NCBI RefSeq assembly: GCF_036365525.1
Contig: NC_090399.1
Coordinates: 57,878,430-57,942,429 of the forward strand
Direction: 5' to 3'
Length of the DNA: 64,000 nucleotides
Source of the DNA: Heterodontus francisci
Lineage: Eukaryota
Under the pieces are notes generated by a model. That model searched no databases. It was not told the DNA's origin and was given only the letters and a program-made list of their open reading frames with translations. A program made the translations under genes and the position numbers. This document shows, piece after piece, positions 1,700 to 60,290 of the stretch; the stretch's first letter is position 1; each line of letters opens with the position of its first letter.

Positions 1700-1960
1700 C
1701 ACCCGTCTGGTTGGTCCGGTTTAAGGCGGTCTGAATATTGGTCTGTCCAATGTGCTCCGAACTCCGCAGGATCTGTGTCTGCTGTTCCCAGTACTCAGGG
1801 CCCTGACTCTCCGCCATCCACTGCTGCCGAGAGATTACTTCCTGAAGATTGCTGTCGTAGTAATCAATCGTAGCATCGTCCACATAACCGACGGCCACAA
1901 ACTCTGGCAGACCAGGAATCGGGGTCATTGCCGTGTAGAAATACCGGAGAGAGTGAGATC
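1700..1960 (-). CDS. UAA-like: MHC class I heavy chain exon 2 (alpha-1 domain), elasmobranch UAA-like
   Basis: The 261-nt exon lies between TGTGTTTCAG (AG at 1961-1962) and GTGAG (1695-1699), phase 1/1. It encodes GSHSLRYFYTAMTPIPGLPEFVAVGYVDDATIDYYDSNLQEVISRQQWMAESQGPEYWEQQTQILRSSEHIGQTNIQTALNRTNQTG, with Y7, Y59, the non-mammalian R84 and the N86 sequon. The lineage call is from remembered shark sequences. Confidence 0.97.
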
Positions 1961-1963
1961 CTG

Positions 1964-4900
1964 AAACACAGAAAGACATCAGGCATGAACCCCAAAACAC
2001 CAACCCAACAGAGAGAAAGAGAGAGAGAGAGACATCAGGGCATCAACTCCAAATCACCAACCCCACAGAGCGAGTGAGACATCAGAGCATGAACCCCAAA
2101 ACACAAACCCAACAGAGAGAGAGAGAGAGAGACATCAGAGCATGAACCCCAAAACACCAACCCAACAGAGAGAAAGAGAGAGAGACATCAGGGCATGAAC
2201 ACGAAAACATCAACACCACAGAGAGAGAGAGAGAGAGAGAGAGACATCAGGGCATCAACCCCAAATCACCAACCCCACAGAGCGAGTGAGACATCAGAGC
2301 ATGAACCCCAAAACACAAACCCAACAGAGAGAGAGAGAGAGAGAGAGAGACATCAGGGCATGAACCCCAAAACATCAACCCCACAGAGAGAGAGAGAGAG
2401 AGAGAGAGACATCAGAGCATGAACCCCAAAACACCAACCCCACAGAGCGAGTGAGACATCAGAGCATGAACCCCAAAACACAAACCCAACAGAGAGAGAG
2501 AGAGAGAGAGAGAGACATCAGGGCATGAACCCCAAATCACCAACCCCACAGAGCGAGTGAGACATCAGAGCATGAACCCCAAAACACAAACCCAACAGAG
2601 AGAGAGAGAGAGAGAGAGACATCAGGGCATGAACCCCAAAACATCAACCCCACAGAGATAGAAAGACATCAGGGCATCAACGCTAAAACACCAACTGTAC
2701 AGAGAGAGAGCTCAGGGCATGAACCCCAAATCAACAGCCCCACAGAGAGAGAGACATCAGGGCATGAACCCCAAAACACAAACCCAACAGAGAGAGAGAG
2801 AGAGACATCAGGGCATCAACCTCAAATCATCAACACCACAGAGAGAGACATCAGGGCATAAACCCCAAAACACAAACCCAACAGAGAGAGAAAGAGAGAG
2901 ACATCAGGGCATAAACCCCAAAACACAAACCCAACAGAGAGAGAGAGAGAGAGACATCAGGGCATGAACCCCAAAACACCAACCTCACAGAGAGAGAGAG
3001 AGAGAGAGAGAGACATCAGGGCATCAACCTCAAAACATCAACACCACAGAGAGAGACATCAGGGCATGAACCCCAAAACACAACCCCACAGAGCGAGAGA
3101 GAGAGAGAGAGAGACATCAGGGCATGAACCCCAAAACACAAACCCAACAGAGAGAGAGAGAGAGAGACATCAGGGCATGAACCCCAAAACACCAACCTCA
3201 CAGAGAGAGACATCAGGGCATGAACCCCAAATCATCAACACCACAGAGAGTGAGAGAGAGAGAGAGAGACATCAGGGCATGAACCCCAAAACATCAACCC
3301 CACAGAGAGAAAGAGAGAGAGACATCAGGGCATGAACCCTAAAACACCAACCCCACAGAGAGAGAGAGAGAGGCATCAGGGCATGAACCCCAAAACATCA
3401 ACCCCACAGAGAGAGAAAGACATCAGGGCATGAACCCCAAAATACCAACCCCACAGAGAAAGAGAGACATCAGGGCATGAACCCCAAATCACCAACCCCA
3501 CAGAGAGAGAGAGAGAAAGACATCAGGGCATGAACCCCAAAACATCAACCGCACAGAGAGACACATCAGGGCATGAACCCCAAAACACCAACCCCACAAA
3601 GAGAGAGAGAGAAAGACATCAGGGCATGAACCCCAAAATACCAACCCCACAGAGAAAGAGAGACATCAGGGCATGAACCCCAAATCACCAACCCCACAGA
3701 GAGAGAGAGACAGCAGGGCATGAACCCCAAAACATCAACCCCACAGAGAAAGAGAGACATCAGGGCATGAACCCCAAAACAACAACCCCACAGAGAGAGA
3801 GACATCAGGGCATGAACCCCAAAACATCAACCCCACAGAGAGAGAGAGAGAGACATCAGGGCATGAACCCCAAAACACCAACCCCACAGAGAAAGAGAGA
3901 CATCAGGGCATGAACCCCAAAACATCAACCCCACAGAGAGAGAGACATCAGGGCATGAACCCCAAAACAACAACCCCACAGAGAGAGAGAGAGAGACATC
4001 AGGGCATGAACCCCAAATCAACAACCCCACAGAGAGAGAAAGACATCAGGGCATGAACGCTGAAACACCAAACGCACAAAGAGAGAGAGAGAAAGACATC
4101 AGGGCATGAACCCCAAAACATCAACCCCACAGAGAGAGAGAGAGAGAGAGATCAGGGCATGAACCCCAAAACATCAACCCCACAGAGAGAGAGACATCAG
4201 GGCATGAACCCCAAAACAACAACCCCACAGAGAGAGAGAGAGAGACATCAGGGCATGAACCCCAAATCAACAACCCCACAGAGAGAGAAAGACATCAGGG
4301 CATGAACGCTGAAACACCAAACGCACAAAGAGAGAGAGAGAAAGACATCAGGGCATGAACCCCAAAACATCAACCCCACAGAGAGAGAGAGAGAGAGAGA
4401 TCAGGGCATGAACCCCAAAACACCAACCCCAGAGAGAGAGAGAGAGACATCAGGGCATGAACCCCAAAACACCAACCCCAGAGAGAGAGAGAGAGACATC
4501 AGGGCATGAACCCCAAAACAACAACCCCACAGAGAGAGAGAGAGAGACATCAGGGCATGAACCCCAAAACATCAACCCCACAGAGAGAGAGAGAGACATC
4601 AGGGCATGAACCCCAAAACACCAACCCCAGAGAGAGAGAGAGAGACATCAGGGCATGAACCCCAAAACAACAACCCCACAGAGAGAGAGAGAGAGAGAGA
4701 CATCAGGGCATGAACCCCAAAACACCAACCCCAGAGAGAGAGAGAGAGAGAGAGATCAGGGCATGAACCCCAAAACACCAACCCCAGAGAGAGAGAGAGA
4801 GAGAGAGAGAGACATCAGGGCATGAACCCCAAAACACAAACCCAACAGAGAGAGAGAGAGAGAGACATCAGGGCATGAACCCCAAAACACCAACCTCACA

Positions 4901-6665
4901 GAGAGAGACATCAGGGCATGAACCCCAAATCATCAACACCACAGAGAGTGAGAGAGAGAGAGAGAGACATCAGGGCATGAACCCCAAAACATCAACCCCA
5001 CAGAGAGAAAGAGAGAGAGACATCAGGGCATGAACCCTAAAACACCAACCCCACAGAGAGAGAGAGAGAGGCATCAGGGCATGAACCCCAAAACATCAAC
5101 CCCACAGAGAGAGAAAGACATCAGGGCATGAACCCCAAAATACCAACCCCACAGAGAAAGAGAGACATCAGGGCATGAACCCCAAATCACCAACCCCACA
5201 GAGAGAGAGAGAGAAAGACATCAGGGCATGAACCCCAAAACATCAACCGCACAGAGAGACACATCAGGGCATGAACCCCAAAACACCAACCCCACAAAGA
5301 GAGAGAGAGAAAGACATCAGGGCATGAACCCCAAAATACCAACCCCACAGAGAAAGAGAGACATCAGGGCATGAACCCCAAATCACCAACCCCACAGAGA
5401 GAGAGAGACAGCAGGGCATGAACCCCAAAACATCAACCCCACAGAGAAAGAGAGACATCAGGGCATGAACCCCAAAACAACAACCCCACAGAGAGAGAGA
5501 CATCAGGGCATGAACCCCAAAACATCAACCCCACAGAGAGAGAGAGAGAGACATCAGGGCATGAACCCCAAAACACCAACCCCACAGAGAAAGAGAGACA
5601 TCAGGGCATGAACCCCAAAACATCAACCCCACAGAGAGAGAGACATCAGGGCATGAACCCCAAAACAACAACCCCACAGAGAGAGAGAGAGAGACATCAG
5701 GGCATGAACCCCAAATCAACAACCCCACAGAGAGAGAAAGACATCAGGGCATGAACGCTGAAACACCAAACGCACAAAGAGAGAGAGAGAAAGACATCAG
5801 GGCATGAACCCCAAAACATCAACCCCACAGAGAGAGAGAGAGAGAGAGATCAGGGCATGAACCCCAAAACATCAACCCCACAGAGAGAGAGAGAGAGACA
5901 TCAGGGCATGAACCCCAAAACACCAACCCCAGAGAGAGAGAGAGAGACATCAGGGCATGAACCCCAAAACAACAACCCCACAGAGAGAGAGAGAGACATC
6001 AGGGCATGAACCCCAAAACATCAACCCCACAGAGAGAGAGAGAGACATCAGGGCATGAACCCCAAAACACCAACCCCAGAGAGAGAGAGAGAGACATCAG
6101 GGCATGAACCCCAAAACAACAACCCCACAGAGAGAGAGAGAGAGAGAGACATCAGGGCATGAACCCCAAAACACCAACCCCAGAGAGAGAGAGAGAGAGA
6201 GAGATCAGGGCATGAACCCCAAAACACCAACCCCAGAGAGAGAGAGAGAGAGAGAGAGAGACATCAGGGCATGAACCCCAAAACACCAACACCACAGAGA
6301 GAGAGAGAGAGAGAGAGAGACATCAGGGCATGAACCCCAAAACACCAACCCCAGAGAGAGAGAGAGAGAGAGAGAGACATCAGGGCATGAACCCCAAAAC
6401 ATCAACCCCAGAGAGAGAGAGAGAGAGAGAGAGACATCAGGGCATGAACCCCAAAACACCAACACCACAGAGAGAGAGAGAGAGACATCAGGGCATGAAC
6501 CCCAAAACATCAAGGCCACAGAGAGCGACAGAGGGACATCAGGAGATGAACCCCAAATCCTCAACTGCGCGCTCACACAGACACCCCATCTCCCACAGAT
6601 ATCAGAGCATAAAGCCTAAAACAGCAATGCCATACATATATAGAGAGTGACATCAGGGCAAGAAG
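1964..6665. repeat. Intron-1 minisatellite A: GACATCAGGGCATGAACCCCAAAACACCAACCCCACA(GA)n, about 45-55 bp, roughly 95 copies
   Basis: Directly visible, with an internal (GA)n of variable length. Identical ORFs recur at offsets of 1698 bp (3566/5264, 3827/5525) and 1449 bp (4599/6048). Confidence 0.97.
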
Positions 6666-6714: not shown

Positions 6715-8730
6715 AAGCAACACAAAATAGAGCCCATATGAATAAACACCAACACAACACAGAGCCCCTGTAAATAAACCCCAACACAACACAGAGCCCC
6801 TGGAAATAAACACCCACACAACACAACATAGAGGCCCTGTAAATAAACACCAACACAACACAGAGCCCCTGGAAATAAACACCAACACAACACAGAGCCC
6901 CTATAAATAAACACCAACACAACACAGAGCCCCTGTAAATAAACACCAACACAACACAGAGCCCCTGTAAATAAACACCAACACAACACAGAGCCCCTGT
7001 AAATAAACACAACACAACACAGAGCCCCTGGAAATTAACATCAATACAACACAGAGCCCCTATAAATAAACACCAACACAACACAGAGCCCCTGTAAATA
7101 AACACCAACACAACACAGAGCCCCTGTAAATAAACACCAACACAACACAGAGCCCCTGTAAATAAACCCCAATAAAACACAGAGCCCCTATAAATAAACC
7201 CCAACATAACACAGAGCCCCTGGAAATTAACATCAATACAACACAGAGCCCCTGTAAATAAACACCAACACAACACAGAGCCCCTGTAAATAAATCCCAA
7301 TAAAACACAGAGCCCCTATAAATAAACACCAACACAAAACAGAGCTCCTGGAAATAAACCCCAACACAACACAGAGCCCCTATAAATAAACCCCAGCACA
7401 ACACAGAGCCCCTGTAATTATACCCCAACACAACACAGAGCCCCTATAAATAAACCCCAACATAACACATAGCCCCTGGAAATTAACACCAATGCAACAC
7501 AGAGCCCCTGTAAATAAACACCAACACAACACAGAGCCCCTGGAAATAAACCCCAATAAAACACAGAGCCCCTATAAATAAACACCAACACAAAACAGAG
7601 CCCCTGGAAATAAACCCCAACACAACACAGAGCCCTTATAAATAAACCCCAGCACAACACAGAGCCCCTATAAATAAACCCCAACATAACACAGAGCCCC
7701 TGGAAATTAACACCAATACAACACAGAGCCCCTGGAAATAAACCCCAACACAACACAGAGCCCTTATAAATAAACCCCAGCACAACACAGAGCCCCTATA
7801 AATAAACCCCAACATAACACAGAGCCCCTGGAAATTAATACCAATACAACACAGAGCCCCTATAAATAAACACCAACACAACACAGAGCCCCTGTAAATA
7901 AACACAACACAACACAGAGCCCCTGTAAATAAACACAACACAACACAGAGCCCCTGAAAATAAACACCAACACAACACAGAGCCCCTGTAAATAAACCCC
8001 AGCACAACACAGAGCCCCTATAAATAAACACCAACACAACACAGAGCCCCTGTAAATAAACCCCAGCACAACACAGAGCCCCTGTAAATAAACCCCAATA
8101 AAACACAGAGCCCCTGGAAATTATCACCAATACAACACAGAGCCCCTGTAAATAAACACCAACACAACACAGAGCCCCTGTAAATAAACACAACACAACA
8201 CAGAGCCCCTGTAAATAAACACAACACAACACAGAGCCCCTGTAAATAAACACCAACACAACACAGAGCCCCTGTAAATAAACCCCAGCACAACACAGAG
8301 CCCCTATAAATAAACACCAACACAACACAGAGCCCCTGTAAATAAACACAACACAACACAGAGCCCCTGTAAATAAACACCAACACAACACAGAGCCCCT
8401 GTAAATAAACCCCAGCACAACACAGAGCCCCTATAAATAAACACCAACACAACACAGAGCCCCTGGAAATAAACCCCAGCACAACACAGAGCCCCTGTAA
8501 ATAAACCCCAGCACAACACAGAGCCCCTGTAAATAAACCCCAACACAACACAGAGCCCCTGGAAATAAACACCAACACAACACATGGTCCCTGTAACTAA
8601 ACCTCAACACAACAGAGCATCCTGTAAATAAAACCCAACATAACTCAGAGCCTCTGTAAATAAACCAGTACACATCACAGAGGGCCTGTAAATAAACCCC
8701 AACATAACACAACACAATACAGAGCCCCTG
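6715..8730. repeat. Intron-1 minisatellite B: 32-bp AAATAAACACCAACACAACACAGAGCCCCTGT, about 60 copies
   Basis: Directly visible. The 32-aa periodicity of the spurious ORFs equals three 32-bp units. Confidence 0.97.
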
Positions 8731-9860: not shown

Positions 9861-10096
9861 GAAGTTGAGGTACAAATCAATTATGATCAAATACAAATGC
9901 TGTTGCTATCGTTCTCTCTCTCTATCTCCATTCTGCAGTCCCATGTCCCTCACTCCCCCTAAAGTCTCTCTCCATTCTCCAGTCCCAGTGCCCAGTCTAG
10001 CACTGAAACCCTCTCAGAGCCCATTACCCACTGACCAAGGGTTAATGCCCCAGTACCCAGCCTGGCACTGAGACCCTCTCAGTCCCCATTACTCAC

Positions 10097-10145
10097 CTGC
10101 AGAGACTCCTCCACACAGGAGGACCAGTTCTATCACTCCAATCAT
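10097..10145 (-). CDS. UAA-like: MHC class I exon 1 (signal peptide) MIGVIELVLLCGGVSA|G
   Basis: ATG at 10143-10145 with A at -3 (ACAATGA). The 49-nt coding part ends G|GTGAGT (10091-10096), and this phase-1 junction joins exon 2 to give GGA-SHSLRY. The LLCGGVSA ending matches shark class I leaders. Confidence 0.93.
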
Positions 10146-10217
10146 TGTTGCTTCCCTCAACAGTCTGGGATGAACAGTTTGTGGTGAATCCTTTTCCCAA
10201 ATACTGTCTCGGGCTCT

Positions 10218-10447
10218 GAGCTGTGTCCAGTTCAGACTGTGTGATTCCTCTGCCCCGTGTTCTGGGTCTGTGAGCTGTGTCCAGTTCAGACTGTGTGATT
10301 CCTCTGCCCCGTGTTCTGGGTCTGTGAGCTGTGCCCAGTTCAGACTGTGTGATTTCTCTGCCCCGTGTTCTGGGTCTGTGAGCTGTGTCCAGTTCAGACT
10401 GTGTGATTCCTCTGCCCCGTGTTCTGGGTCTGTGAGCTGTGCCCAGT
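10218..10447. repeat. 54-bp tandem repeat (4 copies plus a partial) between the MHC promoter and the ATG
   Basis: Units start at 10218, 10272, 10326, 10380 and 10434: GAGCTGTGTCCAGTTCAGACTGTGTGATTCCTCTGCCCCGTGTTCTGGGTCTGT. Confidence 0.97.
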
Positions 10448-11099: not shown

Positions 11100-14085
11100 C
11101 CCAGATTTAAATCCTTATTCCTTGTTTGATTATCTCCCATTCTAAAGGAGAAGGTGGGAGTGTCGGTCCACAAAGGATTGGACTGGGAACAAGCTATATA
11201 AGAGGTGACACCAGGTTGGGATCATCCAGCAGGTGAGTGAGTATGAGCAGCGGAGACTCAGAAAAGGCAGGTCTCAGCTGTGGACGAGCCTTGTCCCACT
11301 AGGGACAGAGACTGGGACTGAGCCAGTCCACAAGCGAGCCACACACAGTCTGAACTACTCGTACTGTGATAAACCAGGTCATGTGGACAGGAATTGGAGA
11401 TCTGGGAGAGAAAGGGGGTCCACACTTTGGACGAGCTCCCGAGGGAGGAGATGGAGGAGAAAGTGATCACATTCACTGCTTTGGACAACAGATTGAGCGA
11501 TTAGAAACTCTGCTGAACATGGAGAAGATTACTGAGAGAGTGGCTGCAGCAAGCTGAGGGCCTCCCATTACCCTACAGTCAAGATCAACAGAAGGAGGCA
11601 TGGCCAACAGAGAATCCCAATAGAGAAGGAGAGCCCTCCTCATAGTCAGGAGTGAGGGTCCAATGTGATGGGTTAGGGAGGAGGGAGTGGTCTCCCCACA
11701 GTTGAGAGTGAGGGTCCGATGTGATGGGTTAGGGAGGAGGGAGTGGTCTCCCCACAGTTGAGAGTGAGGGTCCAATGTGATGGGTTAGGGAGGAGGGACT
11801 GGTCTTCCCACAGTTGAGAGTGAGGGTCCGATGTGATAGGTTAGGGAGGAGGGAGTGGTCTCCCCACAGTTGGAGTGAGGGTCCGATGTGATCGATTAGG
11901 AAGAAGGGAGTGGTCTCCCCACAGTTGGAGTGAGTGTCCGATGTGATGGGTTAGGGAGGAGGGAGTAGTCTCCCCACAGTTGGAGTGAGGGTCCGATGTG
12001 ATGGGTTAGGGAGGAGGGAGTTGTCTCCCCACAGTTGGAGTGAGGGTCCAATGTGATGGGTTAGGGAGGAGGGAGTGGTCTCCCCACAGTTGGAGTGAGG
12101 GTCCAATGTGATGGGTTAGGGAGGAGGGAGTGGTCTCCCCACAGTTGGAGTGAGTGTCCGATGTGATCGGTTAGGGAGGAGGGAGTGGTCTCCCCACAGT
12201 TGGAGTGAGGGTCCAATGTGATGGGTTAGGGAGGAGGGAGTGGTCTCCCCACAGTTGGAGTGAGGGTCCGATGTGATCGGTTAGGGAGGAGGGAGTGGTC
12301 TCCCCACAGTTGGAGTGAGGGTCCAATCTGATGGAGGATTGAGGGAGGAGGGAGTGGTCTCCCCACAGTTGGAGTGAGGGTCCAATCTGATGGAGGATTG
12401 AGGGAGGAGGGAGTGGGCTCCCCACAGTTGAGAGTGAGAGTCCAATGTGATGGGTTAGGGAGGAGGGAGTGGGCTCCCCACAGTTGAGAGTGAGGGTCCG
12501 ATGTGATAGGTTAGGGAGGAGGGAGTGGTCTCCCCACAGTTGAGAGTGAGGGTCCAATGTGATGGGTTAGGGAGGAGGGAGTGGGCTCCCTACGGTTGGA
12601 GTGAGGGTCCAATGTGATGGGTTAGGGAGGAGGGAGTGGGCTCCCCACAGTTGGAGTGAGGGTCCGATGTGATAGGTTAGGGAGGAGGGAGTGGGCTCCC
12701 TACAGTTGGAGTGAGTGTCCGATGTGATAGGTTAGGGAGGAGGGAGTGGTCTCCCCACAGTTGAGAGTGAAGGTCCAATGTGATGAGTTAGGGAGGAGGG
12801 AGTGGTCTCCCCACAGTTGGAGTGAGGGTCCAATGTGATGAGTTCGGGTGGAGGGAGTGGTCTCCCCACAGTTGGAGTGAGTGTCCGATGTGATCGGTTA
12901 GGGAGGAGGGAGTGGTCTCCCCACAGTTGGAGTGAGTGTCCGATGTGATCGGTTAGGGAGGAGGGAGTGGTCTCCCCACAGTTGGAGTGAGGGTCCGATG
13001 TGATAGGTTAGGGTGGAGGGAGTGGTCTCCCCACAGTTGGAGTGAGTGTCCGATGTGATCGGTTAGGGAGGAGGGAGTGGTCTCCCCACAGTTGAGAGTG
13101 AGGGTCCAATGTGATGAGTTAGGGAGGAGGGAGTGGTCTCCCCACAGTTGGAATGAGTGTCCGATGTGATCGGTTAGGGAGGAGGGAGTGGTCTCCCCAC
13201 AGTTGGAGTGAGGGTCTGATGTGATAGGTTAGGGTGGAGGGAGTGGTCTCCCCACAGTTAGAGTGAGTGTCCGATGTGATCGGTTAGGGAGGAGGGAGTG
13301 GTCTCCCCACAGTTGGAGTGAGTGTCCAAGCTGATGGAGGATTGAGGGAGGAGTGGTGTCCCTACAGCTGGTATAAGGGTCCAATATGATGGGAGAGTGA
13401 GGTGGGGTGTTCTCCCCACAGCCGGAAGGAGAGTCTGATGTGATAGGGGCGTGAGGAGGGAGTGGTCTTCCCACAGTCGGAGTGAGGGTCTGATGTGATG
13501 GGGTTGGTTTACCCAGTTGTTCTGGTTGGCCACAGACATGATTTATTGATAAACACTGGATCATTATTGACCATCACACATACCTCACAGTGTCAAACCC
13601 AGACAATGAGGAAAGGGAAACTTGCTTCACTTTCAGGCTTTAACAGGCTGGTTATCCCAGAATATGAAGCTCAGTCATGTTACATAGAAATTGTAGACAG
13701 TTTATGGTTGTGGGTACAGGAGCCCATCCTGGTGACTATAACAGGAAACGCGGGTAAACTGGGCTCTGATGTGTTCTCTGTGGTGGGGATGTGTGTTAAA
13801 TATATAATGGATAACTGCATCTACATGTTGTGTCAGGAAGGAATGTTGAAATGTCAGATGCTTACAAGGTTTGTGCTGTTCAGAAACCTGAGGTCTCTCT
13901 GTTCCCAATGCACAGAGACAGAGCCCTATAAGATCATTGCAAAATACACCAGCAAGTTTGTTAAACACAAACACAACTGCAGAAAGTTAGCAGGAGTGGA
14001 ATACATAACAGGGTCACCTCACCAAACCCGAAAGGAATTACCTATACCTGAGGAGAGTGAACCTCATTATCAATACCAACCTTGA
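11100..14085 (+). mobile_element. Decayed retrovirus-like element: gag zinc knuckle, protease and start of RT, interrupted by a minisatellite
   Basis: YSYCDKPGHVDRNW (11356-11397) is a decayed CX2CX4HX4C. LLINTGSLLT (about 13543-13572) is a decayed DTG protease. KFVKHKHNC..ITGSPH..KELPIPEES resembles an RT N-terminus. Boundaries are approximate and no LTR was identified. Confidence 0.65.
11645..13500. repeat. 55/56-bp G-rich minisatellite GGGAGGAGGGAGTGGTCTCCCCACAGTTGGAGTGAGGGTCCAATGTGATGGGTTA, about 33 copies
   Basis: Directly visible, with a period of 55 (TTAGGG at 12061 and 12116). Confidence 0.97.
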
Positions 14086-14147: not shown

Positions 14148-14260
14148 AGCTGGGCCTCGATGGTAGCACTCTCACCTCACAATCAGAATTTCCCAATCAT
14201 TCAGCACAAAATCTAGGCTGATGCTTCAGTGCAGTACTGAGGGAGTGCTGCACTGTCGGA
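14148..14260 (+). mobile_element. Head of a tRNA-derived Deu-type (SacSINE1-like) SINE that runs into the 33-bp satellite
   Basis: TGGTAGCACTCTCACCTC...AGCACAAAATCTAGGCTGATGCTTCAGTGCAGTACTGAGGGAGTGCTGCACTGTCGGAGG matches the remembered shark SINE consensus. Confidence 0.65.
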
Positions 14261-17200
14261 GGGTCAGTACGGAGGGAGTGCTGCACAGTCGGAGGGTCGG
14301 TACTGAGAGAGCACAGCACTGTCGGAGGGGCAGTACTGAGGGAGTGCTGCACTGTCGGTGGGTCAGTCCTGAGGGAGTGCTGCACTGTCGGAGGGTCGGT
14401 ACGGAGAGAGCACAGCACTGTCGGAGGGGCAGTACTGAGGGAGGGCTGCATTGTCAGAGGGTAAGTACTGAGGGAGGGCTGCACTGTCAGAGGGTAAGTA
14501 CTGAGGGAGTGCTGTGCTGTCAGAGGGTAAGTACTGAGGGGCAGCTGCATTGTCGGTGGGTCAGCACTGAGGGAAAGCTGCATTGTCAGAGGGTAAGTAC
14601 TGAGGGAGGGCTGCACTGTCAGAGGGTAGGTTTTGAGGGAGGGCTGCACAGTCGGTGGGTCAGTACTGAGGGAAAGCTGCATTGTCAGAGGGTAAGTACT
14701 GAGGGAGGGCTGCACGGTCAGAGGGTAAGTACTGAGGGAGGGCTGCACTGTCAGAGGGTAAGTACTGAGGGAGTGCTGCATTGTCGGTGGGTCGGTACTG
14801 AGGGAGAGCAGCACTGTCGGTGGGTCAGTAATGAGGGAGTGCTGCATTGTCAGAGATTCAGTACTGAGGGAGTGCTGCACTGTCAGAGGGTCAATACTGA
14901 GGGAGGGCTGCACTGTCAGAGGGTAAGTACTGAGGGACAGCTGCATTGTCGGTGGGTCGGTACTGAGGGAGAGCTGCACTGTCGGTGGGTCAGTACTGAG
15001 GGAGAGCTGCACTGTCGGTGGGTCGGTACTGAGGGAGGGCTGCATTGTCAGAGGGTCAGTACTGAGGGTGTGCTGCACTGTCAGAGGGTCAATACTGAGG
15101 GAGGGCTGCACAGTCAGAGGGTAAGTACTGAGGGACAGCTGCATTTGCGGTGGGTCAGTACTGAGGGAGTGCTGCACTGTCGGTGGGTCAGTACTGAGGG
15201 AGTGCTGCATTGTCGGTGGGTCAGTACTGAGGGAGGGCTGCACTGTCAGAGGGTAAGTAGTGTGGGAGTGCTGCATTGTCGGTGGGTCGGTACTGAGGGA
15301 GAGCTGCACTGTCGGTGGGTCAGTACTGAGGGAGGGCTGCACTGTCAGAGGATAAGTACTGAGGGAGTGCTGCACTGTCGGTGGGTCAGTACTGAGGGAG
15401 AGCTGCATTGTCAGTGGGTCGGTACTGAGGGAGTGCTGCATTGTCGGTGGGTCAGTCCTGAGGGAAAGCTGCAGTGTCGTTGGGTCAGTACTGAGGGAGT
15501 GCTGCACTGTCGGTGGGTCAGTACTGAGGGAGAGCTGCACTGTCGGTGGGTCAGTACTGAGGGAGAGCTGCACTGTCGGTGGGTCAGTACTGAGGGAGAG
15601 CTGCATTGTCGGTGGGTCAGTATTGAGGGAAAGCTGCATTGTCAGAGGGTAAGTACTGAGGGAGGGCTGCACTGTCAGAGGGTAAGTACTGAGGGAGGGC
15701 TGCACTGTCAGAGGGTAAGTACTGAGGGACAGCTGCATTGTCGGTGGGTCGGTACTGAGGGAGAGCTGCACTGTCGGTGGGTCAGTACAGAGGGAGAGCT
15801 GCACTTTCGGTGGGTCGGTACTGAGGGAGGGCTGCATTGTCAGAGGGTCAGTACTGAGGGAGTGCTGCACTGTCAGAGGGTCAATACTGAGGGAGGGCTG
15901 CACTGTCAGAGGGTAAGTACTGAGGGACAGCTGCATTTGCGGTGGGTCAGTACTGAGGGAGTGCTGCACTGTCGGTGGGTCAGTACTGAGGGAGTGCTGC
16001 ATTGTCGGTGGGTCAGTACTGAGGGAGGGCTGCACTGTCAGAGGGTAAGTACTGAGGGAGTGCTGCATTGTCGGTGGGTCGGTACTGAGGGAGAGCTGCA
16101 CTGTCGGTGGGTCAGTACTGAGGGAGGGCTGCACTGTCAGAGGATAAGTACTGAGGGAGTGCTGCACTGTCGGTGGGTCAGTACTGAGGGAGAGCTGCAT
16201 TGTCAGTGGGTCGGTACTGAGGGAGTGCTGCATTGTCGGTGGGTCAGTCCTGAGGGAAAGCTGCAGTGTCGTTGGGTCAGTACTGAGGGAGTGCTGCACT
16301 GTCGGTGGGTCAGTACTGAGGGAGAGCTGCACTGTCGGTGGGTCAGTACTGAGGGAGAGCTGCACTGTCGGTGGGTCAGTACTGAGGGAGAGCTGCATTG
16401 TCGGTGGGTCAGTATTGAGGGAAAGCTGCATTGTCAGAGGGTAAGTACTGAGGGAGGGCTGCACTGTCAGAGGGTAAGTACTGAGGGAGGGCTGCACTGT
16501 CAGAGGGTAAGTACTGAGGGAGGGCAGCACTGTCAGAGGGTAAGTACTGAGGGACAGCTGCATTGTCGGTGGGTCGGTACTGAGGGAGAGCTGCACTGTC
16601 AGAGGGTCAGTACTGAGGGAGTGCTGCACTGTCGGTGGGTCAGTACTGAGGGAGTGCTGCACTGTCGGTGGGTCAGTACTGAGGGAGGGCTGCACTGTCG
16701 GTGGGTCAGTACTGAGATGGGCTGCAATGTCAGAGGGTAGGTACTGAGGGAGTGCTGCATTGTCAGAGGGTCAGTACTGAGGGAGGGCTGCACTGTCAGA
16801 GGGTAAGTACTGAGGGACAGCTGCATTGTCGGTGGGTCGGTACTGAGGGAGAGCTGCACTGTCGGTGGGTCAGTACTGAGGGAGAGCTGCACTGTCGGTG
16901 GGTCGGTACTGAGAGAGAGCTGCATTGTCAGAGGGTCAATACTGAGGGAGGGCTGCACTGTCAGAGGGTAAGTACTGAGGGACAGCTGCATTGTCGGTGG
17001 GTCGGTACTGAGGGAGAGCTGCACTGTCGGTGGGTCAGTACTGAGGGAGAGCTGCACGGTCAGTGGGTCGGTACTGAGGGAGTGCTGCATTGTCAGAGGG
17101 TCAGTACTGAGGGAGTGCTGCACTGTCGGTGGGTCAGTACTGAGGGAATGCTGCATTGTCGGTAGGTCAGTACTGAGGGAGGGCTGCACTGTCGGTGGGT

Positions 17201-20200
17201 CAGTACTGAGGGAGTGCTGCATTGTCGGTAGGTCAGTACTGAGGGAGGGCTGCACTGTCAGAGGGTAAGTACTGAGGGAGTGCTGCATTGTCGGTGGGTC
17301 GGTACTGAGGGAGAGCTGCACTGTCGGCGGGTCAGTACTGAGGGTGAGCTGCATTGTCAGTGGGTCGGTACTGAGGGAGTGCTGCATTGTCGGTGGGTCA
17401 GTACTGAGGGAAAGCTGCACTGTCGGTGGGTCAGTACTGAGGGAGAGCTGCACTGTCGGTGGGTCAGTACTGAGGGAGAGTTGCACTGTCGGTGGGTCGG
17501 TACAGAGGGTGAGCTGCATTGTCAGAGGGTCAATACTGAGGGAGGGCTGCACTGTCAGAGAGTAAGTACTGAGGGACAGCTGCATTGTCGGTGGGTCGGT
17601 ACTGAGGGAGAGCTGCACTGTCAGAGGGTCAGTACTGAGGGAGTGCTGCACTGTCGGTGGGTCAGTACTGAGGGAGTGCTGCACTGTCGGTGGGTCAGTA
17701 CTGAGGGAGGGCTGCACTGTCGGTGGGTCAGTACTGAGATGGGCTGCAATGTCAGAGGGTAGGTACTGAGGGAGTGCTGCATTGTCAGAGGGTCAGTACT
17801 GAGGGAGGGCTGCACTGTCAGAGGGTAAGTACTGAGGGACAGCTGCATTGTCGGTGGGTCGGTACTGAGGGAGAGCTGCACTGTCGGTGGGTCAGTACTG
17901 AGGGAGAGCTGCACTGTCGGTGGGTCGGTACTGAGAGAGAGCTGCATTGTCAGAGGGTCAATACTGAGGGAGGGCTGCACTGTCAGAGGGTAAGTACTGA
18001 GGGACAGCTGCATTGTCGGTGGGTCGGTACTGAGGGAGAGCTGCACTGTCGGTGGGTCAGTACTGAGGGAGAGCTGCACGGTCAGTGGGTCGGTACTGAG
18101 GGAGTGCTGCATTGTCAGAGGGTCAGTACTGAGGGAGTGCTGCACTGTCGGTGGGTCAGTACTGAGGGAATGCTGCATTGTCGGTAGGTCAGTACTGAGG
18201 GAGGGCTGCACTGTCGGTGGGTCAGTACTGAGGGAGTGCTGCATTGTCGGTAGGTCAGTACTGAGGGAGGGCTGCACTGTCAGAGGGTAAGTACTGAGGG
18301 AGTGCTGCATTGTCGGTGGGTCGGTACTGAGGGAGAGCTGCACTGTCGGCGGGTCAGTACTGAGGGTGAGCTGCATTGTCAGTGGGTCGGTACTGAGGGA
18401 GTGCTGCATTGTCGGTGGGTCAGTACTGAGGGAAAGCTGCACTGTCGGTGGGTCAGTACTGAGGGAGAGCTGCACTGTCGGTGGGTCAGTACTGAGGGAG
18501 AGTTGCACTGTCGGTGGGTCGGTACAGAGGGTGAGCTGCATTGTCAGAGGGTCAATACTGAGGGAGGGCTGCACTGTCAGAGAGTAAGTACTGAGGGACA
18601 GCTGCATTGTCGGTGGGTCGGTACTGAGGGAGAGCTGCACTGTCAGAGGGTCAGTACTGAGGGAGTGCTGCACTGTCGGTGGGTCAGTACTGAGGGAGTG
18701 CTGCACTGTCGGTGGGTCAGTACTGAGGGAGGGCTGCACTGTCGGTGGGTCAGTACTGAGATGGGCTGCACTGTCAGAGGGTAAGTACTGAGGGAGTGCT
18801 GCATTGTCGGTGGGTCGGTACTGAGGGAGTGCTGCACTGTCGGTGGGTCGGTACTGAGGGAGAGCTGCACTGTCGGTGGGTCAGTACTGAGGGAGGGCTG
18901 CACTGTCAGAGGATAAGTACTGAGGGAGTGCTGCACTGTCGGTGGGTCAGTACTGAGGGAGAGCTGCATTGTCAGTGGGTCGGTACTGAGGGAGTGCTGC
19001 ATTGTCGGTGGGTCAGTCCTGAGGGAAAGCTGCAGTGTCGTTGGGTCAGTACTGAGGGAGTGCTGCACTGTCGGTGGGTCAGTACTGAGGGAGAGCTGCA
19101 CTGTCGGTGGGTCAGTACTGAGGGAGAGCTGCACTGTCGGTGGGTCAGTACTGAGGGAGAGCTGCATTGTCGGTGGGTCAGTATTGAGGGATAGCTGCAT
19201 TGTCAGAGGGTAAGTACTGAGGGAGGGCTGCACTGTCAGAGGGTAAGTACTGAGGGAGGGCTGCACTGTCAGAGGGTAAGTACTGAGGGACAGCTGCATT
19301 GTCGGTGGGTCGGTACTGAGGGAGAGCTGCACTGTCGGTGGGTCAGTACTGAAGGAGTGCTGCATTGTCAGAGGGTCAGTACTGAGGGAGGGCTGCACTG
19401 TCAGAGGGTAAGTACTGAGGGACAGCTGCATTGTCGGTGGGTCGGTACTGAGGGAGAGCTGCACTGTCGGTGGGTCAGTACTGAGGGAGAGCTGCACTGT
19501 CGGTGGGTCGGTACTGAGAGAGAGCTGCATTGTCAGAGGGTCAATACTGAGGGAGGGCTGCACTGTCAGAGGGTCAGTACTGAGGGACAGCTGCATTGTC
19601 GGTGGGTCGGTACTGAGGGAGAGCTGCACTGTCGGTGGGTCAGTACTGAGGGAGAGCTGCACGGTCAGTGGGTCGGTACTGAGGGAGTGCTGCATTGTCA
19701 GAGGGTCAGTACTGAGGGAGTGCTGCACTGTCGGTGGGTCAGTACTGAGGGAGTGCTGCATTGTCGGTGGGTCAGTACTGAGGGAGGGCTGCACTGTCGG
19801 TGGGTCAGTACTGAGGGAGTGCTGCATTGTCGGTGGGTCAGTACTGAGGGAGGGCTGCACTGTCAGAGGGTAAGTACTGAGGGAGTGCTGCATTGTCGGT
19901 GGGTCGGTACTGAGGGAGAGCTGCACTGTCGGTGGGTCAGTACTGAGGGAGGGCTGCACTGTCAGAGGATAAGTACTGAGGGTGTGCTGCACTGTCGGTG
20001 GGTCAGTACTGAGGGAGAGCTGCATTGTCAGTGGGTCGGTACTGAGGGAGTGCTGCATTGTCGGTGGGTCAGTACTGAGGGAAAGCTGCACTGTCGGTGG
20101 GTCAGTACTGAGGGAGAGCTGCACTGTCGGTGGGTCGGTACAGAGGGTGAGCTGCATTGTCAGAGGGTCAATACTGAGGGAGGGCTGCACTGTCAGAGAG

Positions 20201-20860
20201 TAAGTACTGAGGGACAGCTGCATTGTCGGTGGGTCGGTACTGAGGGAGAGCTGCACTGTCAGAGGGTCAGTACTGAGGGAGTGCTGCACTGTCGGTGGGT
20301 CAGTACTGAGGGAGTGCTGCACTGTCGGTGGGTCAGTACTGAGGGAGGGCTGCACTGTCGGTGGGTCAGTACTGAGGGAGGGCTGCACTGTCAGAGGGTA
20401 AGTACTGAGGGAGTGCTGCATTGTCGGTGGGTCGGTACTGAGGGAGAGCTGCACTGTCGGTGGGTCAGTACTGAGGGAGGGCTGCACTGTCAGAAGGTAA
20501 GTACTGAGGGTGTGCTGCACTGTCGGTGGGTCAGTACTGAGGGAGAGCTGCATTGTCAGTGGGTCGGTACTGAGGGAGTGCTGCATTGTATGTGGGTCAG
20601 TACTGAGGGAAAGCTGCAGTGTCGGTGGGTCAGTACTGAGGGAGAGCTCCATTGTCAGTGGGTCGGTACTGAGGGAGGGCTGCATTGTCAGAGGGTCAGT
20701 ACTGAGGGAGTGCTGCACTGTCGGTGGGTCAGTACTGAGGGACAGCTGCATTGTCGGTGGGTCGGTACTGAGGGAGAGCTGCACTGTCGCTGGGTCAGTA
20801 CTGAGGGAGTGCTGCATTGTTGGTGGGTCGGTACTGAGGGAGAGCTGCAGTGTCGGAGGT
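14232..20860. repeat. 33-bp satellite CAGTACTGAGGGAGTGCTGCACTGTCGGTGGGT, about 200 copies, with 792-bp and 1022-bp higher-order repeats
   Basis: Directly visible. The variant GCATTTGCGG occurs at 15141 and 15933 (24x33 bp apart). ORF boundaries recur at 16599, 17621 and 18643 (1022 = 31x33-1). Confidence 0.98.
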
Positions 20861-58229: not shown

Positions 58230-60290
58230 AAGTGATTGACGCACTCGCTCAAATTTATAACAAGTTTGTTGCTAAATTAACTCATGACTGTGACTCTTCT
58301 ACAATGAAGAGGCAATAAATGAGCCCCTACATTCCTTCACTGAACAGAACAATATTCTGAAAGACAGTCACCCATGTACACGCAATGATACGATCTCTAT
58401 TATAGCAGCATGTTATTAGAAAAGGCATGTTCACCACAAATTCACCAATCTGACCAATTAAAAAGCCTGATGGCAGCTGGCACCTGACCAATGATTATCG
58501 GAAGTTGAATTCTGTCACACCAGCATGTGCTCCAGTGGTGCGAGAAACTCAAACCATCCTGTCCCAAGTCCCAATGACTCAGTGTTTTTCCACATTGGAA
58601 GTTGCTGATAGTTCCTGGAGCATCCCCGTTCGACGGGAAGACCAGAATAAATTTGCCTTTACATTTGAGGATCAGAGTTATATGTGGATGTGACTCCCAC
58701 AAGACTTTCAGAATGTGATGACGTTATTCCAGAAACATATGGCCGCTGCTATTAAAGCCTTTTTACAACCACAATGCTTGATACAATATGTGAATGATTT
58801 ACTGTTGGTTCCCAGCACTAAGGAAGAACATGTCCTGCTTTAGAAGATCTCCGACAGTTATTGCAGAAACAGGATTAAAACCCAATCTCCGCAAGGCCCT
58901 GTTGATACAGCAGCAACGTGTCACCTTATGGAGAGTGTCAGTGTCAGTTACTGTTCAGGAACCTGATATTCTAAATGTTCAGACTATATAAACATTACCA
59001 CATCCCACTTCTAAAACTGTTTGTGATCATTTCTCAGACCAGTCGGTTGTCAGAAAATGTTTATCCTGCGGTCTGCCGAATTAGATTTAAAAAACCTCCA
59101 GATGATTTACTGGGAGGGACGGAAGACAATGTATAGTCCGACTGAACACCAGGGTATACTGACACTGTCCTGTCCCTCAAGCAGGCAGGAATGCAGGCGA
59201 CATCTCAAATAGCCCTCGACCTGAGGCAGTCTTTCCACCTGAAAGGAGGGGTAACCGACCAAAGTCTGGCTGCAGGTCTCTCTCAGGATGTCCAGGGTAA
59301 CCTGTTGACAATTGCGTCACTAATCCTCACTAAAGTTGAAAAAACCCATGAGCCCTGTGAACGGTATTTGTTCACCACCTTCTGGGAAGTAAAACATTTC
59401 ACATTTCTCACAGACTTGCAGAGTTCACCTTATAGTTATCTCACTGTTCACTGAATTTACTACTGAGATCCGGGGACAGGTCAGTCTCTCCTGCTCGAAT
59501 AAACCATTGGACATTGCCGCTAATGGAGAGTCACTTGGACATTACTCCAAAACACACCACTCTGTAACCTCAAATGATGCAGTATGAGGGAGAGCCGCAT
59601 GAAAACCCGCTCCCTCTCCTTAACTTCACGGCATATCCAGTCCGGAAGTCTGCAATCAAAAACACTTCCTGATATTTACATCCAAAGCTCATCATTCCAT
59701 ATGAACGGGATATCCATGACTGGGTTTTCTGTTATTCTCCCCAACCATGTTCTTCAGTATCGATTTATCCTCCATTCCACACAATATACTGAGATGGCAA
59801 CCCGAGTCATGACATTAATCGAAACTACCGAACAACATGTGAATATTTGATCCAATAAGTGCCCATGATATTCACACTCTGCTATGCACCACCTGGGGAA
59901 CCGTCAGCATTACAGGATTGTCTGCTCATTGTGGACACATTTAACAAATGTATGGAGGCATTCCCCTGTAAAACCAGCACAACTATGGCAACAAACCAAG
60001 TCTTATGGTGTGAGGTGTTGTGCGGGTAGGAAATACATTTTCAAATGGATAGTGAACCGAGGCCCCATTTTACAGAGCAAATCTTTGCTGAATTATTGAA
60101 ATTGATGGAAGTCATTCAAAAGCTAGACGTGAGTTATCACTCACTATCCTTCGGGGTAGTTGAATGAGGCAATCGGAACTTGAAAATGAATGTTGGAAAA
60201 GTTTTGTGTCTATGTGCCTGATGACAATCTGGTCAACATTTCACTCCACCACAGGAATATCCCCTTAAAAGGAGTTGATGTGTAAAATAA
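58230..60290 (+). mobile_element. Decayed retrovirus-like pol: RT, tether/RNase H, second RNase H, integrase
   Basis: RT: NSPI*PIKKPDGSWHLTNDYRKLN, KFAFTF, W.*LPQDF, LIQYVNDLL (YVND at 58787-58798). First RH: FHL...TDQSLAAGLSQ...CERYL..FWEVKHF. Second RH: IYIQSSSFH.NG...HSTQYTEMA. Integrase: VDTFNKCMEAFP, RGPHFT, YH...FGVVE*GNRNLK. Confidence 0.85.

Follow-up and report, generated by a model that had tools for sequence, protein, structure and literature searches.

In a 64,000-nucleotide stretch of Heterodontus francisci DNA (NC_090399.1, 57,878,430-57,942,429; hereafter the window, to which positions refer unless a contig is named), a gene on the minus strand encodes a class I heavy chain of the major histocompatibility complex (MHC), and the first intron of this gene ends in a minisatellite, array A (1961..6665, minus strand), whose last unit is itself the splice acceptor region of exon 2. 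We consider it likely that array A is a near-neutral passenger: sequence flanking the splice site was amplified, the copies have been tolerated, and splicing likely takes place on the terminal unit alone. A preliminary description of this DNA had noticed the resemblance between array and acceptor and had suggested that copy number and (TC)n length could tune splicing of the alpha-1 exon. Our results bear out the resemblance and speak against the tuning, since AG-creating changes in the arrays are not purged and the spliced contigs use the terminal AG.

Homology to class I genes is found in the leader, alpha-1 and alpha-2 exons of the gene; its alpha-1 protein matched 486 PDB sequences, with a class I chain at the top (E 1.8e-28). 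Exon 2, which encodes the alpha-1 domain (1700..1960, minus strand, 261 nt), has boundaries that match spliced contigs, and intron 1 (10096-1961, 8,136 nt) precedes it. Cutting array A at its 94 anchors, of which one proved spurious, yields 93 units including the terminal one; the earlier figure of about 95 copies was thus slightly high, and Tandem Repeats Finder (TRF) gives 90.6 copies. Core units are 43-59 nt long, their length being set by the (TC)n tract, and the array is degenerate past ~6557. The terminal unit (1961..2010, minus strand) ends in TTTCAG, and the last 50 intron bases are identical to the real monomer in 38 of 42 aligned columns, a fit that none of 1000 dinucleotide shuffles equalled; that the acceptor region is the last repeat unit holds across paralogues as well. 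As first described, the units keep a CTGAT-type motif (90 CTGAY in the array) and a variable pyrimidine tract, the run after CTGAT measuring 1-27 nt (mostly 13-19). From its motif, the CTGAT of the terminal unit, with its A at 1979 (-19), would be the branch point.

The monomer consensus lacks AG, as had been stated, yet the array itself carries 19 AGs in 14 of its 92 upstream units. Seven of these units contain TTTYAG, and in three the motif is TTTCAG; the 8-mer TGTTTCAG, identical to the true site, recurs as a decoy acceptor within units at 4060..4067, 4309..4316 and 5758..5765 (all minus strand). GTRAG motifs number only 3 in the array core. The nearest upstream AG (2047..2048, minus strand) limits the AG exclusion zone to 84 nt; the long zone with distant branch points that had been envisaged is therefore not kilobases in length, and it contains 2 of the 90 CTGAY. 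Given this zone and the scanning rule of Gooding et al. (PMC1431707), the true AG could be reached from two motifs alone, those at -19 and -75. The second belongs to the penultimate unit (2011..2046, minus strand; A at 2035), which combines CTGAT with a long (TC)n tract and is the sole upstream candidate branch site in the AG-free zone. In two paralogues introduced below, 2 of 299 (L009) and 1 of 1,202 (L018) CTGAY could scan to the true AG.

These counts bear on the possibility that the array works as a splicing rheostat, in which the upstream units would serve as decoys for the branch point or bind factors of the PTB/U2AF type, so that the efficiency of exon 2 inclusion would depend on copy number and (TC)n length. 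[quoted passage not shown] We nevertheless find a rheostat unlikely, as 88 of the 90 CTGAY would meet another AG first, and as decoys, contigs and paralogues, considered in turn below, also tell against it.

We compared the G>A and T>A changes that create an AG with those that fall at other sites, counting distinct 31-nt cores because the array groups share ancestry and their units are not independent. Seen and expected numbers were 26 and 26.8 in the nine near-identical window-like genes (L001-L009), 26 and 23.4 in L017/L018, 42 and 40.8 in an array beside TAP2, and 34 and 34.4 in the unplaced contig C2187, so that the comparison with a mutation model gave no depletion in the window's own group. 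Purifying selection against AG, which we had considered, was not seen in four of the five array groups, L010 alone deviating. The scarcity of AG (4 per kb in the window array) reflects a monomer that lacks it, not the removal of new AGs. Moreover, AG decoys have been amplified along with the arrays of L007-L009 (9-14.5 kb in this assembly), which carry 19-41 TTTYAG. The test was made over whole arrays, the 84-nt zone itself being too short for a separate one.

Among assembled sequencing runs, the exon was matched in five, none recorded as RNA, of which X1-X4 are one sample. A 591-nt contig in X4 has exon 2 flanked by 145 letters of leader and 181 letters of alpha-2, with exons 1, 2 and 3 joined, and a 591-nt contig is also seen in X3 and X4 when searched from the leader side. 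In the bridging contig exon 1 is spliced to the terminal AG, and its differences, three in number, are the very ones that L007/L008/L009 show. Rows with loose ends at the leader donor continue into the start of exon 2 in 4 of 4 cases and into the array in 0 of 4, and loose ends in X2, matched by eye, fit a leader-to-exon-2 join of the type of another paralogue, L012. No contig joined exon 1 to a decoy, contigs recording presence only, which again argues against a rheostat.

The arrangement is not peculiar to the window gene. An alpha-1 search gave 37 matches among 44 candidates, and the best 30 were examined with their flanks (L001-L030); 26 of these 30 loci were paired with an alpha-2 exon and placed on a tree, L027-L030 being left out. 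Monomer A is present in 22 of the 26 paralogues on the tree, in arrays that range from remnants to 58 kb, and these 22 genes form one tree group (91/90, not starred). The window gene is one of the nine copies L001-L009, which are 99-100% identical in protein and all carry array A at the end of intron 1 (2.7-14.5 kb, 55-298 units); two of the nine sit on unplaced contigs and are possibly alleles or haplotigs. A YTGAT motif is kept at -19 to -34 in 22 of 22 monomer-A paralogues, which is an ordinary distance because branch points normally lie in the final 40 nt (PMC1431707). AG-free zones in these genes span 43-908 nt and are shorter than 130 nt in 16 of the 22.

Copy number shifts readily along the tree. 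L010 has an array of 53.9 kb (~1,140 units) and its sister L011 one of 0.6 kb (14 units); L017 (51.4 kb) and L018 (58.3 kb) compare with less than 1 kb in their sister L016, and L017 and L018, whose alpha-1 and alpha-2 exons are identical, still differ from each other in array length. Unit number thus differs up to ~80-fold between sister genes. The array had been called length-polymorphic, and this is so between paralogues in one assembly and is not shown between alleles. Intron 1 of L010, L017 and L018 measures ~59-67 kb and consists chiefly of monomer A. At the other extreme, L015, L020 and L021 have one acceptor unit, with 4-5 further units ~3.7-4.0 kb upstream, past an insertion; here the array is severed from the acceptor, which is a further point against a rheostat. 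Beside this remnant array, ~4.1-4.3 kb upstream of exon 2, the same three loci hold two inverted monomer matches.

Several observations weigh against neutrality and the sole use of the terminal unit. The pyrimidine tract of the -75 unit is longer than that of the terminal unit, and branching might truly take place there as an alternative. In 6 of the 22 paralogues the AG-free zone extends over 178-908 nt and admits 3-20 upstream CTGAY where these were counted. The monomer has one polarity throughout: every class I gene, and TAP2 too, carries it in the sense direction (0 reverse matches in the loci searched). The 54-kb array of L010 has 11 AG-creating changes where 17.8 are expected and 0 TTTYAG, a mild deficit that would suit a rheostat; its G>A changes (7/21) are fewer than expected at p 0.012, uncorrected and 1 of 10 tests, and T>A changes in L001-L009 also lean to an AG deficit (p 0.072). 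As for the contigs, those of X1 and X2 cover 1962-2003 and the start of intron 2, so that some unspliced RNA, or DNA, is in the sample at an unmeasured level. It is sister copies that the bridging contig matches, the copy in the window being a different one, and contigs, here from one sample, drop rare isoforms and give no levels.

We suggest a plausible course of events for a passenger array. Splice-flank sequence in a repeat-prone region would have been amplified by slippage and unequal exchange, and the resulting array would be able to spread only intron-ward, away from the exon. It would be tolerated, the terminal unit having an ordinary branch motif, tract and AG; the terminal site would prevail as the only one paired, through exon definition, with the exon-2 donor 261 nt downstream, a pairing that we infer. 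Splice-flank repeats are common in these class I loci: arrays abut the alpha-1 acceptor at 20 of 30 loci, the alpha-2 donor at 21, the alpha-2 acceptor at 4 and the alpha-1 donor at 1, the loci being related and the events not independent. Downstream of the alpha-2 exon (L108-L136), a repeat of 25-26 nt with a likeness to the donor begins there or close by in 21 of 30 loci.

Unequal exchange raises a different possibility, that a repeat placed 5' of the alpha-1 exon serves as a recombination substrate, promoting unequal crossover or conversion and driving the birth-and-death turnover of class I genes. Nine near-identical copies with unequal array lengths could be read in this way, as could an exact 1.1-kb block duplication in array A (3094..5892, no strand assigned; 4792-5892 equals 3094-4194 at an offset of 1,698), which is either a recent unequal exchange or an assembly artefact. 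Terminal units, too, tend to bear the diagnostic variant of their own array (GTCC in L017/L018, GCCC in L010), and L010/L011 join L001-L009 on the alpha-1 tree (91/93) and are unplaced on the alpha-2 tree. The same patterns follow from neutral repeat turnover, however; no crossover was mapped to the array, and leader exons upstream of it follow their own genes. A driving role in turnover therefore seems to us highly improbable.

The direction in which acceptor and array arose is a separate matter. The preliminary description spoke of an amplified acceptor copy; the sequence identity stands, across paralogues, and the direction from acceptor to array was assumed, the data being compatible with either. 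The branch region may have been amplified into the array, or a repeat may have replaced an older branch point and now supply it. Paralogues that look single-copy do not settle the matter, most of them being reduced arrays. Single-copy paralogues as an unamplified ancestor were rejected for L015/L020/L021, which have remnant units 3.7-4.3 kb upstream, and this status is doubtful for L023 (two partial monomer matches), L022 (two units) and L026 (cut by an insertion). Compared with the acceptor of L012, monomer A is alike in its final 16-18 bases (26/1000 shuffles as good), and homology of its CTGAT block to that acceptor was not detected (498/1000). Weak hints of kinship, in GT-rich sequence, link A with array B, a second intron-1 repeat (30/1000), and B with the L012 acceptor region (15/1000).

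Related genes have other repeats at this acceptor. L012 (C29:66.35 Mb) and L013 (C29:66.72 Mb) have a 137-bp unit that combines every part of an acceptor (CTAAC, a pyrimidine tract and TTTCAG) with a portion of exon 2, in 12 copies and, within the 20 kb examined, at least 86 copies, respectively, and they present decoy acceptors more cleanly than array A does; L024 has a 71-mer array at the acceptor and L025 has array B. Array B is mid-intron in the nine window-like genes and directly at the acceptor in L025 (328 anchors in 10 kb). L012 retains what we take to be the peptide-anchoring residues. It is probably the classical class I gene, because it lies 0.67 Mb from TAP2, fitting the compact class Ia region described in PMC10751288. 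In-frame stops occur in two loci, a TGA in the alpha-2 exon L128 (C29:66.833 Mb, paired with L011) and a TAG in the alpha-1 exon of L023, and no same-strand leader for L011 was found within 10 kb; L128/L011 and L023 are likely pseudogenes.

Beyond the class I introns, the monomer has one further major site. An exact 24-mer of the monomer, searched in 6.0 Gb, gave 4,154 matches (1,238 forward, 2,916 reverse), and the reversed control gave 0; placement was by this 24-mer, a DNA search with 300 array bases having scored only 38 of 123 candidates. A place was assigned to every match: class I intron 1 contains 2,918, an array beside TAP2 contains 958 and contig C2187 contains 278. Monomer A is therefore not a dispersed repeat, since these three settings account for every exact match. 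Abundance elsewhere, independent of splice acceptors, had been named as a finding that would speak against the tuning idea, and it is found in part, in the 958 copies that lie outside class I introns at a likely TAP2 promoter array. C2187 is a 40.7-kb unplaced contig, repeat from end to end and of the TAP2/L010 variant type, and may be a second haplotype or a missing part of a long array.

The TAP2-side array is the most surprising by-product of our analysis. It spans 98.7 kb (C29:65,681,5xx-65,780,175, ~2,260 units) and ends ~110 nt before the ATG of a gene whose second exon matches TAP2 (PDB, E 7e-5), the first exon alone having no PDB match. The interval from array to ATG has 72% GC, a GC box and two IRF-type motifs (-110, -66), and from these features it is likely the TAP2 promoter; IRF-type motifs occur at 0.009 per kb across the loci examined. 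The TTTCAG that closes the array overlaps the first IRF-type motif, and the final 4,343 nt are free of AG and form the longest among its 179 gaps; because of these two features, the array end may, from its sequence, serve as an acceptor for an unseen non-coding exon. The monomer here is of the L010/L011 type, those genes being 0.8-1.2 Mb off, and we infer that the repeat may have reached the region upstream of TAP2 by local ectopic transfer from an array of that type. That the array is a relic of a class I gene was considered and rejected, as no leader or alpha-1 match occurs in the 150 kb examined; the upstream non-repeat sequence shows, by eye, only retrotransposon-like frames. Introns of TAP2 hold further arrays, unrelated to monomer A.

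Arrays of this size could act through bulk, as passive dosage modifiers: very long ones would reduce or slow expression, not by affecting the choice of splice site but by way of intron length, R-loops, G-quadruplexes or satellite chromatin, and the TAP2 array would do likewise. This idea fits the 51-58 kb arrays of three class I introns, the 98.7 kb beside the two IRF-type motifs and GC box of TAP2, and ~1.7 runs of at least three G per unit on the sense strand of array A. Against it, long-array genes do appear in RNA contigs (levels unmeasured), and unrelated arrays lie in other introns, those of TAP2 included, so that monomer A is not singled out; we hold such an effect to be improbable. We give still less credence to the broader notion that an acceptor-derived satellite is a shared, length-variable control of the shark class I pathway, in introns and at the TAP2 promoter alike, which would set the dosage of antigen-presentation genes through splicing-factor decoys and chromatin.

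As a near-neutral passenger, array A recalls the 37-bp VNTR of intron 7 of human F7, in which a donor with GT is repeated, giving 5-9 sites of which the exon-proximal one is used (PMC1557585, Borensztajn et al. 2006). In both, the exon-proximal unit is the working splice signal and the other units are silent look-alikes; for array A the use of the exon-proximal site is seen in contigs only, from one sample and from sister copies. Unlike the F7 repeat, array A is on the acceptor side, is mostly AG-less, has up to ~1,200 CTGAY-bearing units per intron, is common to 22 paralogues and also stands upstream of TAP2. It is thus a variant of the splice-site-spanning minisatellite of the F7 intron 7 type, not a plain member, because its upstream units mostly have no complete splice site (TTTCAG in 3 of 92, TTTYAG in 7 of 92); the 137-bp array of L012/L013 does have complete splice-site copies. 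Within these class I genes, the alpha-2 donor-side minisatellite is likewise anchored at a splice site and spreads into the intron, differing in being at a donor and in its monomer of 25-26 nt.

Two other known systems are less close. Distant branch points lie 100-400 nt upstream with no AG between (PMC1431707, Gooding et al. 2006). Array A resembles these exons in having a branch-like motif and pyrimidine tract above the usual position, and its 84 nt just reach the 80-nt class; it differs in that AGs interrupt after 84 nt and a motif at normal distance stands at -19. We therefore rejected a distant-branch-point exon, the zone being 84 nt (178-908 nt in the six paralogues noted above) with no general AG depletion. 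With the ABCA7 VNTR (PMC5954066, De Roeck et al. 2018) and the CFTR (TG)n repeat (PMC10078293), array A shares a variable length and an intronic position near an exon; in those cases, length was tied to exon skipping by measurement, whereas no tie of that kind was seen for array A. Among titles and abstract openings, with most subscription journals outside the coverage, no acceptor-side or shark MHC intron minisatellite was found.

Most of the window is minisatellite: besides array A, TRF lists five large arrays. One, array B (6718..8711, minus strand), is also in intron 1 and has 62 copies of a 32-mer (31-32 nt) whose unit bears AG, containing TTTACAG; array A itself occupies only 4.7 of the 8.1 kb of this intron. 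The coding part of the leader exon (10097..10145, minus strand) has 16 codons plus one base, followed by a GT donor at 10096, and contigs reach through 10215. Contigs also cover 9999-10075, just inside intron 1, and a 63-nt joint that goes back on itself in three runs suggests that other class I copies have a related tandem repeat close to their leader donor. The alpha-2 exon lies ~7 kb downstream of the alpha-1 exon, beyond the window. Upstream of the gene are four arrays at 10217-10447, 11649-13502, 14232-20856 and 21708-56263, with units of 54, 55, 33 and 37 nt; the 54-mer array borders the transcribed leader, ~70 nt 5' of the start codon, and the last is 34.5 kb long. At ~58400-60200 there is, judged by eye, a broken reverse-transcriptase/integrase-like sequence.

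The observation is real and holds across the gene family, and the array is probably neutral. It offers a natural series for the choice of 3' splice sites: nine near-identical genes with 55-298 decoy branch/pyrimidine units and up to 41 decoy AGs, with further contrasts in sister genes of 14 and ~1,140 units and in a classical-like gene (L012) that has 12 complete acceptors as decoys. The growth of introns to 60 kb in this MHC is illustrated as well, and the analysis draws attention to a 99-kb satellite set against the likely TAP2 promoter. No result here shows tuning; if it were true that array length tunes class I or TAP2 output, this would be a new form of immune variation, invisible to short-read typing.

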